64,000 nt of DNA from an uncultured Alphaproteobacteria bacterium. GTDB taxonomy: Bacteria > Pseudomonadota > Alphaproteobacteria > HIMB59 > GCA-002718135. The notes under the pieces were generated by a model that did no database searches, was not told where the DNA came from, and saw only the letters and a program-made list of their open reading frames with translations. This document shows, in pieces, positions 39,645 through 43,494 of this stretch. Within the stretch, counting starts at the first letter, position 1, and each line of letters begins with the position of its first letter. Location: the NCBI GenBank assembly GCA_902615625.1, contig CACMPM010000006.1, positions 10,173 through 74,172 of the forward strand, read 5' to 3'. The position numbers and the translations under genes were made by a program.

Positions 39645-42287
39645 TTAAGCAGCTTCTGAAATTATTTCATTTAATACGTAATTTAAAATTCCTCCTGCTT
39701 TGTAATATTCTAGTTCTTTATTTGTATCTATTCTGCACTTTAATTTTATATCGTTAATTTCTTTAGAATTTATTTTACAATTAAGTGCGATACCTGGTTT
39801 TAAATCTGACAAACCAGTTATGGATATAAATTCTTCACCTTTAATATTGAGGTTTATTCTGTTTTCATTATTCATAAATTCAAGAGGCAAAACACCCATT
39901 CCAATTAAATTAGATCTATGAATCCTCTCAAAGCTTTCAGCAATAACTGCTCTAACTCCTAAAAGTCTTGTTCCTTTTGCCGCCCAATCTCTTGATGAAC
40001 CTGTACCATATTCTTTTCCAGCAATTATTACAGTATCAATATTGCTTTTTATATATTCTTGAGCAGCATCATAAATTGACATTTGTTTATTAGAGAGAAA
40101 AGATTTCGTGTACCCTCCTTCTACATTATCTAAGATCTGATTCTTGATTCTTATATTTGCAAAAGTTCCTCTCATCATAATTTCATGATTGCCTCTTCTA
40201 GATCCATAGGAATTAAAGTTTCTAGAATTAATCTGTCTGTCTGTTAAATAGAGACCTGCGGGACTATCTTCTTTAATATTTCCCGCAGGTGAAATATGGT
40301 CAGTTGTAACGCTATCACCAAGTAATGCTAGTATTCTTGCATTTTCTATATCTCTTAGTTCAAATTTATTTTTTATATCAAAAAAAGGTGGGTGCTTTAT
40401 GTAAGTACTAGTATCGTTCCAATCATAAGTTGTGTTTTTAGAATTGTTAATTGATTTCCAGTTATCATCTCCTTTGTAAATTTCTTTGTATCTTTCTTTA
40501 AACATCTCTGGAGTTAAACACAAACTAAGTGTCTCATTAATTTCTTTATTTGATGGCCATAAATCTTTTAGATATATTTTTTTTCCAGATTTAGATTTAC
40601 CTATAGATTCAGTTGTAAGGTTAACATTAATATTTCCTGCAATAGCATAAGCGACAACAAGAGGGGGTGAGGCAAGAAAATTCGCTTTTACTTCTTGATG
40701 AACTCTACCCTCGAAGTTTCTATTTCCAGATAAAACTGAACAAACAGTTAAATTATTTTTTTTGATTTCATTAGACACCCATTCATCTAAGGGTCCAGAA
40801 TTACCGATACAGGTTGTACATCCATAGCCAACGGTATTGAAACCTAAAAGATCAAGATATTCTGTTAATCCGGCTTTATCAAGATAATCACTAACTACTT
40901 TACTGCCTGGTGCTAAACTTGTCTTCACCCAAGGCTTTACTTCTAAACCTAAACTAATTGCCTTTTTTGCAACTAACCCTGCTGCGATCATAACATTAGG
41001 ATTGGATGTATTTGTACAACTAGTAATGGCTGCGATTACAACATCACCTGTATTTAATCTGTTTTTATTTGTAATTTTTTTGTTGTCCATCTTACTAAAT
41101 TCATTTGGTACTTCTTTTAAAAGAATTTTGTCTTGAGGTCTTTTTGGGCCTGCGAGAGTAGGTTCGACTGTTTCTAAATCTAATAATATTTTGTCAGAAA
41201 AATCTGGTGAATAATTATCGTCTGCCCAAAGTGTTTGTTTTTTTGAATATTCTTTGACTATATTTAAGTGCTCAGTTTGTTTGCCAGTTAATTTAAGATA
41301 ATTAATTGTTTCTTCATCTGTTGGAAAAAATCCACAAGTTGCTCCGTACTCTGGAGCCATGTTAGAAATTGTTGCTCTGTCAGCTAATGATAAATTGTTT
41401 AAGCCTTTACCATAAAATTCTACAAACTTTCCGACAACGCCTTTTTCTCTCAGCATTTTAGTAATAGATAAAACTAAATCAGTAGCTGTTATACCTTCCT
41501 TCAAAGATCCTTTAAGTTCGAAACCAATGACCTCTGGAATATTCATGGAAATTGCTTGTCCTAACATCGCAGCTTCAGCTTCTATTCCTCCAACTCCCCA
41601 TCCTAAAACAGAAAGAGAGTTCACCATTGTAGTATGGCTGTCTGTTCCTACAACAGAATCTGGGAATAAATAATTTTGATTATTGATTTCCTTTAACCAT
41701 ATAGTCTTGGCTATGTTTTCTAAATTTACTTGATGACAAATTCCTGCTCCTGGGGGCACAAGATAAAAGTTATCGAATGAGTTTTGTCCCCATTTAAGAA
41801 ATTCATATCTTTCTTTATTTCTATCAAATTCTTTTCTAACATTTTCTTTCAAAGCATTATTATCTTTATATTTATCAACCATAACAGAGTGGTCTATAAC
41901 AAGATCTACTCTTGATAACGGGTTTATTTTTTTTGGCTCAATGCCTTTTGATTTCAATGCATTTCGCATTGCGGCAAGATCGGCAACAGCAGGTACTCCT
42001 GTAAAATCCTGCATTAAAACTCTCGTAGGGAAAAAGGCTATTTCAATTTTTTCATCTTTCTTATTAATTTCTTTTAAAGAATTGAAAACTTTAAAGAGCA
42101 TATCTTTATTAATATTCTCACCATCCTCGTTTCTAAGTAAATTTTCAATTATTATTTTTATAGTAATTGGGATTTTACTTAGATCAGTATCAAAATATTC
42201 AGCTGCTTTATTTAAATTAAAATACTTGAATTTTTGATCGTTTATTTCAATTGTATCTTCTGAATTGAAGGAATTTCTATTTTTCAT
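39645..42287 (-). CDS. acnA: Aconitate hydratase A
   Basis: 880 aa with MQDFTGVPAVADLAAMR, TDSHTTM, Fe-S Cys motifs (ITSCTN, GCTTCIGNSG) and GSSRDWAAKG. Confidence 0.95.
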   Translation of the reverse strand: MKNRNSFNSEDTIEINDQKFKYFNLNKAAEYFDTDLSKIPITIKIIIENLLRNEDGENINKDMLFKVFNSLKEINKKDEKIEIAFFPTRVLMQDFTGVPAVADLAAMRNALKSKGIEPKKINPLSRVDLVIDHSVMVDKYKDNNALKENVRKEFDRNKERYEFLKWGQNSFDNFYLVPPGAGICHQVNLENIAKTIWLKEINNQNYLFPDSVVGTDSHTTMVNSLSVLGWGVGGIEAEAAMLGQAISMNIPEVIGFELKGSLKEGITATDLVLSITKMLREKGVVGKFVEFYGKGLNNLSLADRATISNMAPEYGATCGFFPTDEETINYLKLTGKQTEHLNIVKEYSKKQTLWADDNYSPDFSDKILLDLETVEPTLAGPKRPQDKILLKEVPNEFSKMDNKKITNKNRLNTGDVVIAAITSCTNTSNPNVMIAAGLVAKKAISLGLEVKPWVKTSLAPGSKVVSDYLDKAGLTEYLDLLGFNTVGYGCTTCIGNSGPLDEWVSNEIKKNNLTVCSVLSGNRNFEGRVHQEVKANFLASPPLVVAYAIAGNINVNLTTESIGKSKSGKKIYLKDLWPSNKEINETLSLCLTPEMFKERYKEIYKGDDNWKSINNSKNTTYDWNDTSTYIKHPPFFDIKNKFELRDIENARILALLGDSVTTDHISPAGNIKEDSPAGLYLTDRQINSRNFNSYGSRRGNHEIMMRGTFANIRIKNQILDNVEGGYTKSFLSNKQMSIYDAAQEYIKSNIDTVIIAGKEYGTGSSRDWAAKGTRLLGVRAVIAESFERIHRSNLIGMGVLPLEFMNNENRINLNIKGEEFISITGLSDLKPGIALNCKINSKEINDIKLKCRIDTNKELEYYKAGGILNYVLNEIISEAA

Positions 42288-42492
42288 GCTAAAGTTGATA
42301 AATAATTATAATAATTAAATAGTATGAAGATAAATTTTTGTATAGCAAAATGTTTATTTATTATAAGTTTTCTGCGAAAAATAAAAAGTAAAGTTGGTTT
42401 TTTTATATTAAGTTTTTGTAAAAATAATAATTTGAATCAATAATAAGATAAATTTTAAAATACTGGTATATTGTTGACTTTAATCGTAAGTT

Positions 42493-42521
42493 TTGGGAAT
42501 AAATGCTTAGCCTTTTATAAT
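42493..42521 (+). promoter_or_regulatory. Putative sigma-70 promoter of the poly-Lys gene (TTGGGA-17 nt-TATAAT)
   Basis: TTGGGA is at 42493-98 and a perfect TATAAT is at 42516-21. This predicts a leader of about 55 nt. Confidence 0.4.
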
Positions 42522-42582
42522 TATCACTACTTTGATAATGGAGGGAGGTTCCTCCGGGGTAACAAAATACAAGGAGTATTTT

Positions 42583-42759
42583 ATGGCTAAGAAGAAAAAG
42601 AAAGCTGCTCCAAAGAAAAAGAAAAAAGCAGCTCCTAAGAAAAAGAAAAAAGCAGCTCCTAAGAAGAAAAAGAAAAAAGCTGCTCCTAAGAAAAAGAAAA
42701 AAGCAGCTCCTAAGAAGAAAAAGAAAAAAGCTGCTAAAAAGAAGAAAAAGAGAAGATAG
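42583..42759 (+). CDS. 58-aa poly-lysine tandem-repeat protein, (K5-6 A A P)x6, histone-H1-tail-like
   Basis: MAKKKKKAAPKKKKKAAPKKKKKAAPKKKKKKAAPKKKKKAAPKKKKKKAAKKKKKRR. It has 37 K plus 2 R out of 58 residues and no acidic residues. The AAGGAG SD at 42571-76 lies 6 nt before the ATG. It has its own promoter-like boxes and a canonical terminator. Confidence 0.7.
   Translation: MAKKKKKAAPKKKKKAAPKKKKKAAPKKKKKKAAPKKKKKAAPKKKKKKAAKKKKKRR
42589..42753 (+). repeat. In-frame 24/27-nt tandem DNA repeat encoding the KKKKK(K)AAP units
   Basis: Unit AAGAAAAAGAAAAAAGCAGCTCCT occurs three times identically and alternates with the 27-nt unit AAGAAGAAAAAGAAAAAAGCTGCTCC(T). Confidence 0.9.
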
Positions 42760-42777
42760 TTATACTTCTATTTCTCG

Positions 42778-42828
42778 AGAAAACTTTAATTTAAAGTTTT
42801 CTTTTTCTTATCTTTTTCAAAAAGATAA
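42778..42828. repeat. Two adjacent perfect A/T-rich palindromes
   Basis: AGAAAACTTTAA-T-TTAAAGTTTTCT is at 42778-42802. TTATCTTTTT-C-AAAAAGATAA is at 42808-42828. Confidence 0.85.
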
Positions 42829-42853
42829 AACGGGGTTCTGCCCCGTTTTTTTT
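42827..42853 (+). terminator. Rho-independent terminator of the poly-Lys gene
   Basis: ACGGGG-UUCUG-CCCCGU stem-loop followed by a run of 8 U. Confidence 0.85.
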
Positions 42854-42888
42854 ATTGTTTTATATCAAAAAGTAATTAGGTTTTAATA

Positions 42889-43494
42889 ATGTTAATTGTT
42901 AAGGATTTGTCGGTACAAAGATTAGATAAAGCAATATTTGAAAATATTAGCTTATCTCTTTCACCTAGAAATATTACAATTTTAAAAGGGAAAAATGGAT
43001 CAGGCAAAACTACCTTACTAAAAGCAATTTTGAATATTATAGAGCCCTCTTTTGGATCAATATATTGGAAAGGAAAATTGTTAAAAAAAAATCTATATGA
43101 TTTCTATAATCATGTTACTTATATTCCTGACACAACAACAAGTTTAAAAAAATTAACCATCAGAGATAATATAAATATTTGGAAAAAATTTTTTATTTCA
43201 GATATTAATAATGCACAAATTGAAACAGCATTAAAAACCTTAAAACTGGATAATAATTTAAATAAAAAAGTTGGAACATTATCTTTTGGTGAAACAAAAA
43301 AATTAGAATTTTTAAGATTAATTATAGAAAACAAAAATGTTTGGATTTTAGATGAGCCTTTTTCAAATCTGGATGACGATTCAATTGAATTGATGAAACA
43401 AACTTTTGAAGATCATTGTGCTAATGAAGGTTCTATAATTTTTAGCTCACATCAAAATCCAGGAATTTATGTAACAGAAGAAATGGAATTATAA
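42889..43494 (+). CDS. ccmA: Heme exporter ATP-binding protein CcmA
   Basis: 201 aa with GKNGSGKTTL Walker A, the LSFGETKK signature and ILDEP Walker B. First gene of the ccm cluster. Confidence 0.9.
   Translation: MLIVKDLSVQRLDKAIFENISLSLSPRNITILKGKNGSGKTTLLKAILNIIEPSFGSIYWKGKLLKKNLYDFYNHVTYIPDTTTSLKKLTIRDNINIWKKFFISDINNAQIETALKTLKLDNNLNKKVGTLSFGETKKLEFLRLIIENKNVWILDEPFSNLDDDSIELMKQTFEDHCANEGSIIFSSHQNPGIYVTEEMEL

Follow-up and report, generated by a model that had tools for sequence, protein, structure and literature searches.

A poly-lysine repeat gene in the acnA-ccmA spacer appears strongly selected and encodes a candidate nucleoid-binding polycation

A 64,000-nucleotide (nt) stretch of alphaproteobacterial DNA (contig CACMPM010000006.1, positions 10,173 to 74,172; hereafter the window) is tightly packed at 29% GC, and the largest gap between its long open reading frames (ORFs), the 601-nt spacer between acnA and ccmA, holds an ORF of 58 codons that consists of lysine-rich repeats. 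Sequence comparisons indicate that this ORF is a genuine, strongly selected protein-coding gene. By analogy with known basic proteins we propose, with moderate confidence, that its product is a disordered polycation that binds DNA or the nucleoid in the manner of a protamine or of a histone H1 tail.

The ORF runs from ATG to TAG at 42583-42759 on the plus strand and translates to MAKKKKKAAPKKKKKAAPKKKKKAAPKKKKKKAAPKKKKKAAPKKKKKKAAKKKKKRR. The predicted protein of 6.6 kDa, at ~6,614 Da or ~6,482 Da with Met removed, comprises 37 Lys, 2 Arg, 13 Ala, 5 Pro and 1 Met and no acidic residue, in agreement with the 39 Lys or Arg among 58 residues counted in a preliminary description of this DNA, and has an isoelectric point of ~12 and a net charge of ~+39. 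The repeat spans its whole length and leaves no other domain, and AlphaFold2 predicts no secondary structure (predicted template modelling score 0.17). The preliminary description had written the protein as six K5-6-A-A-P units; its repetitive nature stands, but only five of the spacers read AAP, and one is AA and lacks Pro. Likewise, of the alternating 24- and 27-nt repeats proposed for the coding sequence (CDS), the three identical 24-nt units (each AAGAAAAAGAAAAAAGCAGCTCCT) are there, but a single 27-nt unit leaves no strict alternation: Tandem Repeats Finder detects 24- and 51-nt periods, and cutting by hand gives units of 24, 24, 24, 27, 24, 24 and 21 nt. A gene on the minus strand opposite the ORF was rejected, as no ORF of 30 or more amino acids (aa) lies there.

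Evidence that the protein itself is under selection comes from two sets of relatives. Gene calls on contigs in 948 blocks of public assemblies include the exact 58-aa protein; an exact look-up of the same protein in a 15-billion-protein collection did not find it, although the gene-position index has these 948 blocks. In a close set made up of the window and 11 close relatives (loci L001-L012), the CDS has 20 variable sites, 19 of which are synonymous third positions (binomial probability under equal positions 1.2e-8); the sole nonsynonymous change is Pro-to-Thr. Nonsynonymous codon differences per codon amount to 0.003 in the poly-Lys gene versus 0.24 in ccmA of the same genomes, and synonymous-site variation per codon to 0.08 versus 0.21, which is 2.6-fold less. 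A metagenome scan with the 5′ leader of the gene as its pattern (the GGAGGG-AGGT-TCCTCC hairpin, with the window's own variant excluded on purpose) added at least 120 loci from deep branches, whose AcnA and CcmA proteins are 65-72% and 41-54% identical to those of the window. In every one of the at least 120 loci listed, the ATG downstream of the leader opens a Lys/Arg-Ala-Ala-Pro repeat ORF. A protein search with CcmA contributed no diversity, its listed matches all being at least 88% identical, and the leader pattern had no match in viral contigs.

Joined, the two sets contain at least 111 unique alleles, every one in frame. Repeat copy number varies by whole codons, so that the frame conservation in relatives on which the preliminary description had staked its case is strict, and a phase-variable contingency locus was rejected because the indels are all whole codons. 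Among the loci listed, the proteins range from 37 to 92 aa (median 65), with 54-67% Lys plus Arg and net charges of +22 to +52. Each carries 6-14 basic blocks of 3-6 consecutive Lys or Arg residues, lengths of 4 and 5 dominating, which in the homologues listed are separated by AAP (671 spacers) or AA (199); the most frequent termini are MAKKKKKAA at the N-terminal end and AAKKRRR at the C-terminal end. Over the 6,596 residues of the alleles listed, K makes up 49.5%, A 27.1%, R 12.1% and P 9.5%, and Asp, Glu, Asn and Gln are absent altogether. The purine-only codons of these homologues are AAA (2028), AAG (1615), AGA (788), AGG (25) and GGA (1), with no GAA or GAG. G is thus frequent at codon positions 2 and 3 and nearly absent at position 1, which places the constraint at the level of the protein rather than of the RNA; on this pattern a purely non-coding purine tract was rejected.

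Codon choice adds a further sign of selection. Of the Lys codons, 49% are AAG in the window gene and 44% in 101 homologues, a threefold enrichment over the 14.6% seen in the long ORFs of the window. The longest A-run in the window CDS is 6 nt, as the preliminary description had noted, and in 100 of 101 alleles it does not exceed 8 nt. When Lys codons were redrawn at their genomic frequency, the median longest A-run was 18 nt and none of 10,000 draws gave 6 nt or less; when the AAA and AAG codons of the gene were shuffled among themselves, a longest run of 6 nt or less arose with P = 0.0001 (1 in 10,000 trials). The avoidance of poly(A) is therefore statistically real, and these simulations show that codon choice keeps A-runs short, which would avoid transcriptional or ribosomal slippage. 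Together with the synonymous bias and the in-frame homologues, this A-run avoidance led us to reject a chance A-rich ORF, and the view that the ORF is a real, monocistronic-looking, selected gene rather than A-rich noise is upheld. Pro codons are also skewed, with 566 CCT and 56 CCA in the gene and the homologues listed compared with 203 CCT and 248 CCA in the genes of the window. The regular choice of Ala codons (GCT or GCA, then GCT) was considered as a selected hairpin and rejected, because the synonymous GCTGCA and GCTGCG occur.

We propose that the protein acts purely by charge. It would bind cellular polyanions and neutralise their phosphate charge, and its likeliest target would be the AT-rich chromosome, as for the C-terminal tail of histone H1 or a protamine. 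P-K-K-K turns would suit the minor groove; the (S/A)PKK-type turns of the H1 tail prefer the minor groove of AT-rich DNA. Where function is set by total charge and not by a fold, repeat number is free to vary and would drift by in-frame slippage. A function that depends on charge and is independent of fold fits both this free variation and the absolute ban on acidic residues.

The same properties would serve a polycation whose main targets are rRNA, ribosomes or mRNA. It would then work as an accessory basic peptide on ribosomes, as an RNA chaperone, or as a macromolecular counter-ion in place of Mg2+ or polyamines, rather than as a chromosome protein; we consider this alternative possible but distinctly less probable. 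RNA is the most abundant polyanion in the cell, and the evidence for coding and for selection is equally compatible with an RNA target. The strong Shine-Dalgarno (SD) site, the structured untranslated regions (UTRs) and the SD/anti-SD-like leader hairpin of the gene, all described below, would recall the autoregulated leaders of ribosomal protein genes. The 2.5-fold range of repeat number, by contrast, would be unusual for a protein at a defined ribosomal site, and the searches do not point to the ribosome: NCBIfam gave no match, its small basic ribosomal families (bS22, bL37, bTHX and similar) included, no Pfam small ribosomal protein was matched, and a PDB sequence search at E values up to 10 returned no match and hence no chain of a solved ribosome.

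Other family searches were equally empty. An hmmscan of Pfam-A at E values up to 10 returned no family, with Hc1 (PF07432), HC2 (PF07382) and Linker_histone among those covered, in a setting where the composition correction of HMMER penalises such sequences, and phmmer found no match for the peptide among 5.8 billion proteins. Homology searches with this peptide come back empty because of its composition. We found no description of the gene in the SAR11/Pelagibacter literature, and a 2009 survey of the intergenic regions of P. ubique reports no coding region there that is attributable to it.

Comparison with known basic proteins was therefore made by their properties. The preliminary description had assigned the repeats to the DNA-condensing tails of eukaryotic H1 and of bacterial H1-like proteins. 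This kinship holds for the Lys/Ala/Pro composition and the variable repeat number, but there is no match to Hc1 or Hc2 and there are no folded domains such as those of AlgP or H1. The earlier reading is thus borne out for the gene and for its kind, not for its target. Like the tail of the eukaryotic linker histone, the protein is dominated by Lys, Ala and Pro and predicted to be disordered; unlike H1 it is bacterial, stands alone at about half the length of the H1 tail, and lacks both a winged-helix globular domain and Ser/Thr phosphorylation sites. With protamines it shares a size within 30-100 aa, a basic content above 50%, basic runs (4-7 residues in protamines) set between short neutral spacers, and the lack of acidic residues and of a fold; protamine function, too, depends on charge and not on a specific sequence. 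Its charge density, with blocks of 4-5 basic residues and 62% basic residues overall, is closer to that of protamines than to that of H1 or AlgP tails. Protamines, however, are Arg-based, eukaryotic and specific to the germ line, whereas the poly-Lys protein is Lys-based (Arg 3-12%) and bacterial, and the resemblance is convergent, not homologous.

Among bacteria, the closest parallels come from several lineages. ScvA/Hq1 of Coxiella burnetii and BpH1 of Bordetella are small, very basic proteins of host-associated bacteria that are thought to condense DNA; ScvA is rich in Arg and Gln, and BpH1 is polymorphic in repeat number. The poly-Lys protein differs from both in composition and in repeat unit, and kinship in sequence would not be expected. 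The Chlamydia proteins Hc1 (HctA) and Hc2 (HctB), which condense DNA, are likewise small and rich in Lys and Ala, and repeat number varies here as in the DNA-binding Hc2, which ranges from 165 to 237 aa through differing numbers of lysine-rich repeat units (PMC2848022). HctA translation is reported to be under tight control by RNA (PMC3469542), a parallel to the elaborate UTRs of the poly-Lys gene. Apart from the missing Pfam match, the differences are that Hc2 is 3-4 times longer and less charge-dense and that both chlamydial proteins belong to a developmental cycle, which free-living SAR11-type cells lack. AlgP comprises 352 aa, a folded N-terminal domain of 124 aa followed by a KPAA tail; its K/A/P repeats are disordered, its repeat peptides bind DNA and its repeat number varies between clones (PMC9239181). 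The poly-Lys protein resembles the C-terminal KPAA domain of AlgP and PhaF in its low complexity restricted to Lys, Ala and Pro, its predicted disorder, its high positive charge and its variable repeat number. It is unlike AlgP in its length of 37-92 aa with no folded N-terminal domain and in its unit, (K/R)3-6 followed by AAP or AA, where the KPAA unit has one Lys per four residues.

AlgP, with a net charge of +55, is also the standout protein of polyphosphate granules, and its KPAA tail is needed for granule spacing (PMC9239181). On the strength of the similar composition, the poly-Lys protein might bind polyphosphate or another non-nucleic polyanion, organising granules or tethering them to DNA, or bind acidic lipids. 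We judge this improbable: the protein has no N-terminal domain for a second interaction, and the locus and its neighbourhood hold nothing related to polyphosphate. From these comparisons the poly-Lys protein appears to resemble the H1 tail and protamines in kind while being a member of no defined family. What is new is that a Lys/Ala/Pro polycation of very high charge density stands alone, as a tail and nothing else, and has a conserved expression cassette of its own.

Read from the sequence, this cassette would consist of a promoter, leader hairpins, an SD site, a structured 3′UTR and a terminator (Table 1). The AAGGAG site, the TTGGGA-17-TATAAT pair and the terminator named in the preliminary description are all present and are conserved in the relatives. 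New with respect to that description are the conserved, structured UTRs, the 3′UTR motif that matches the CDS in complement, and the constant closeness of ccmA to the terminator. Promoter, 5′UTR hairpins, 3′UTR hairpins and terminator are in fact conserved across clades whose CcmA proteins are only 41-54% identical.

Table 1. Coordinates of the poly-lysine gene and of the candidate expression signals around it.
Feature	Coordinates	Strand	Basis or remark
Conserved 24-nt block ATATTGTTGACTTTAATCGTAAGT, directly upstream of the -35 hexamer	42469..42492	+	Candidate UP element or activator site
Promoter-like pair, -35 TTGGGA, 17-nt spacer, -10 TATAAT	42493..42521	+	Consensus scan, 10/12 positions
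5′-proximal hairpin, ATCA...TGAT in the window	42523..42536	+	At or a few nt from the predicted transcription start
Second leader hairpin GGAGGG-AGGT-TCCTCC, SD-like arm paired with anti-SD-like arm	42540..42555	+	Invariant in L001-L012
Shine-Dalgarno AAGGAG, 6 nt before ATG	42571..42576	+	Conserved in all relatives
CDS, poly-Lys/Ala/Pro repeat protein	42583..42759	+	ORF call, exact protein in 948 blocks, synonymous bias, in-frame homologues
3′UTR hairpin 1, GAGAAAACTTTA / TAAAGTTTTCTT	42777..42803	+	Folding
Conserved pyrimidine motif TTTTCTTTTTCTTA	42797..42810	+	Exactly complementary to CDS 42636-42649 and 42687-42700
3′UTR hairpin 2, TATCTTTTT / AAAAAGATA	42808..42828	+	Sequence differs between clades, absent in some
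Intrinsic terminator AAAACGGGG-TTC-TGCCCCGTTTT plus T-run	42827..42853	+	Consensus scan, 42827-42849 then 8 T

The 24-nt block upstream of the promoter occurs once in the window, is nearly invariant in the close set and is at least 90% conserved in most columns across 89 unique upstream sequences that include deep clades. Both promoter hexamers are conserved across clades, the -10 hexamer reading TATGTT in the deeper ones. The 5′-proximal hairpin, usually (T)(A/G)TCACTT-loop-AAGTGAT(G) with a loop of 3-7 nt, folds in nearly all of 82 distinct variants and shows a few compensatory changes (CAC/GTG to CGC/GCG; GCTACT/AGTAGT). RNAalifold missed it on the 5′UTR because variation in loop length broke the alignment, and sequences were folded singly instead. 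The GGAGGG-AGGT-TCCTCC hairpin shows no variation and so leaves no room for covariation. Its pattern is found a single time in the window, and every metagenome match fetched precedes a poly-Lys gene. The SD duplex energy of the gene ranks fifth among 67 window genes, only 3 of which have a 6-mer SD site.

Downstream of the stop codon stands the 14-nt pyrimidine motif, exact in 66 of 79 unique 3′UTRs. It is the exact reverse complement of TAAGAAAAAGAAAA, that is, of the codon pattern ..CCT-AAG-AAA-AAG-AAA-A.. of the repeats, and the CCT-AAG junction belongs to this complementary 14-mer. The exact complement of the motif is found in the CDS of the same locus in 74 of 90 unique motif-bearing loci and, within one mismatch, in all 90; against 78 control T/C 14-mers of the same composition, the real motif ranks first, with 74 loci versus 22 for the runner-up. 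Complementarity between CDS and 3′UTR may be the cause of the low synonymous variation, 2.6-fold below that of ccmA, and of the preference for CCT. Hairpin 1 attains 8 or more base pairs in 63 of 70 UTRs that carry the motif, its 5′ arm taking 35 different forms. Since the first 7 nt of the motif form the 3′ arm of this hairpin, local and long-range pairing would compete. A GC-rich terminator hairpin with a T-run is present in 103 of 103 loci, the T-run ending 79-104 nt after the stop codon. Alternative pairing was found for hairpin 1 (motif against CDS), and none was seen for the GC-rich terminator. Rfam 15 has no family at gathering threshold for the poly-Lys unit, the only match in the window at threshold being a tRNA; the matches in 42280-42900 (leu/phe leader, L20 leader, CrcZ) all score far under threshold, centre on the terminator and were rejected as terminator or A-rich artefacts.

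These RNA features could mean that the transcript is the functional product, as a sponge for Hfq or another RNA-binding protein or as the source of a 3′UTR-derived small RNA, with translation incidental. The transcript has some 40 A-R-N triplets, a U-rich tract and a terminator hairpin ending in poly(U), which would suit such a role, and the order hairpin, U-rich tract, hairpin, terminator is like that of described Hfq-binding modules. UTRs conserved more strongly than the flanking proteins, conserved complementarity between CDS and 3′UTR, and synonymous sites that vary 2.6-fold less than in ccmA point the same way. We nonetheless regard this as the least probable of the alternatives, and very unlikely: the way G is distributed over codon positions, like the 19:1 excess of synonymous changes, proves that the protein is selected, and the unit matches no Rfam family.

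The position of the gene is as constant as its cassette. In ten single-cell or metagenome-assembled genomes the order is a suv3-like helicase gene and acnA (both on the minus strand), the poly-Lys ORF and ccmA-ccmB-ccmC-ccmE-ccmF, and in the metagenome loci listed the gene lies between acnA and ccmA wherever flanks are present. In the window ccmA starts at 42889, and in 89 of 89 loci measured its ATG follows the terminator by 25-43 nt. A scan of genome contigs with CcmC, whose WGTWWVWD motif is universal, gave 80 listed alphaproteobacterial loci, 2 of SAR11 type and 78 that served as outgroups. A divergent acnA/ccmA pair occurs in 35 of these 80, Rhizobiales and Rhodospirillales included, with spacers of ~60 to ~340 nt, and its distribution indicates that the pair is ancestral in Alphaproteobacteria. 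Among the matches listed, no non-SAR11 locus has a Lys-rich ORF in the acnA/ccmA spacer. Two AT-rich marine loci labelled Rickettsiales (L015 and L020) keep the order suv3-acnA-ccmA, with a spacer of ~60-70 nt and no poly-Lys ORF. That AT-rich relatives have the same synteny without the gene argues for a lineage-specific insertion or de novo expansion. The lineage that bears the gene, to which the Pelagibacteraceae locus L012 belongs, would be SAR11-type (Pelagibacteraceae), a placement that for the window follows from related records and composition.

Constant proximity to ccmA raises the prospect of a cis-regulatory leader ORF, whose translation would control read-through past the downstream hairpins and terminator into ccmABC, through competition between hairpin 1 and the CDS/3′UTR duplex, and whose peptide would be a by-product. 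The gene is always directly upstream of ccmA, the 25-43 nt between terminator and ccmA ATG contain no promoter-like site in a consensus scan, and the 3′UTR motif has two possible partners, the other arm of hairpin 1 and the CDS. Several findings make this reading improbable, marginally more so than polyphosphate binding. Selection acts on the peptide itself, which contains no Glu or Asn and has both termini conserved; its length, which ranges over 37-92 aa, far exceeds that of known leader peptides; and its Lys codons precede cytochrome c maturation genes, which have no known link to Lys supply. From the stop codon to the terminator end there are 79-104 nt, too great a distance for a ribosome standing at the stop to bridge. 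The GC-rich terminator does not vary, no alternative partner for it was seen, and relatives that lack the ORF make do with a spacer of ~60 nt for ccmA expression.

Several further observations concern the spacer and its assembly. A second conserved block, AAATAGTATGAAGATAA.TTTTTGTATAGCAAAATGTT.ATTTATTAT.AG...TCTGC.AAAAAAT, lies at 42320-42400 on the plus strand, between the acnA start (42287) and the poly-Lys promoter; it is common to L001-L011, the sequence on either side varies, and it holds the ATG of a tiny plus-strand ORF (MKI[N/I]FCIAKC...) whose stop position differs between genomes. This block is probably the promoter, leader or operator of acnA. On the other side, ATTGT follows the terminator T-run in almost all of the 89 loci (42854-42888 in the window), and a -10-like TAAAAT or TAAATT often stands ~20 nt before the ccmA ATG in this set, so a compact ccmA promoter may overlap the terminator. 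On one marine metagenome contig of ~1.9 coverage (L146; UPTF01022767.1), ~50 nt after the leader match, this leader with three poly-Lys repeats continues in frame into a 564-aa ORF. This solute-binding-protein-like ORF has 42% GC versus 18-35% in its flanks and has no ccmA downstream; either the assembly is chimeric here, or a gene fusion or insertion has really taken place. Many contigs (L098, L103, L161, L164, L173, L209 and others) end 7-31 nt upstream of the leader hairpin or within the repeats, probably as assembly breaks at a conserved/variable boundary and in repeats.

Several considerations weigh against a DNA-binding polycation. Such a polycation would be expected to bind DNA no more readily than rRNA, mRNA or polyphosphate, so that DNA is chosen here by analogy. 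Sequence searches place the protein in no family. Lys and Arg cost much nitrogen, at 1.74 N per residue, in an organism that lives in nitrogen-poor water. The two UTRs, with their very strong conservation, and the CDS-complementary 3′UTR motif suggest additional, RNA-level functions that lie outside this proposal, and the constant placement of the ccmA ATG so close behind the terminator leaves room for a cis role in ccm expression. The DNA- or nucleoid-binding polycation nevertheless stays our preferred reading.

A bolder version of it, which we hold only tentatively and think doubtful, is a 'bacterial protamine' that would have arisen de novo in SAR11-type bacteria as the A-rich acnA-ccmA spacer expanded: a fold-less, tail-only poly-Lys protein that would be a major counter-ion of the nucleoid or of nucleic acids in free-living cells of the smallest size, its dose set by an RNA device. 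That device would combine the SD-like/anti-SD-like leader hairpin with the 3′UTR tract pairing with the Lys codons of the gene, and such pairing would also account for the fact that the codon order CCT-AAG-AAA-AAG-AAA is fixed.

SAR11-type bacteria rank with the most numerous cells of the ocean; their cells are very small and their genomes very compact. A streamlined genome of 29% GC here gives its largest local intergenic space to a 58-aa polycation, and the better conservation of promoter, leader and terminator than of the neighbours' proteins argues that the product is important. The locus shows cleanly how a low-complexity gene confined to one lineage escapes homology searches, tryptic proteomics (no tryptic peptide would exceed 5 residues) and probably early annotation. 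Its alleles of 37-92 aa form a natural series for relating charge dose to function. If the protein does serve as a counter-ion of chromatin or nucleic acids, it would be the simplest natural protein of the H1-tail or protamine type in bacteria, and it would supply a missing part in models of how these cells pack their DNA and balance charge, nitrogen cost, polyamines and Mg2+.

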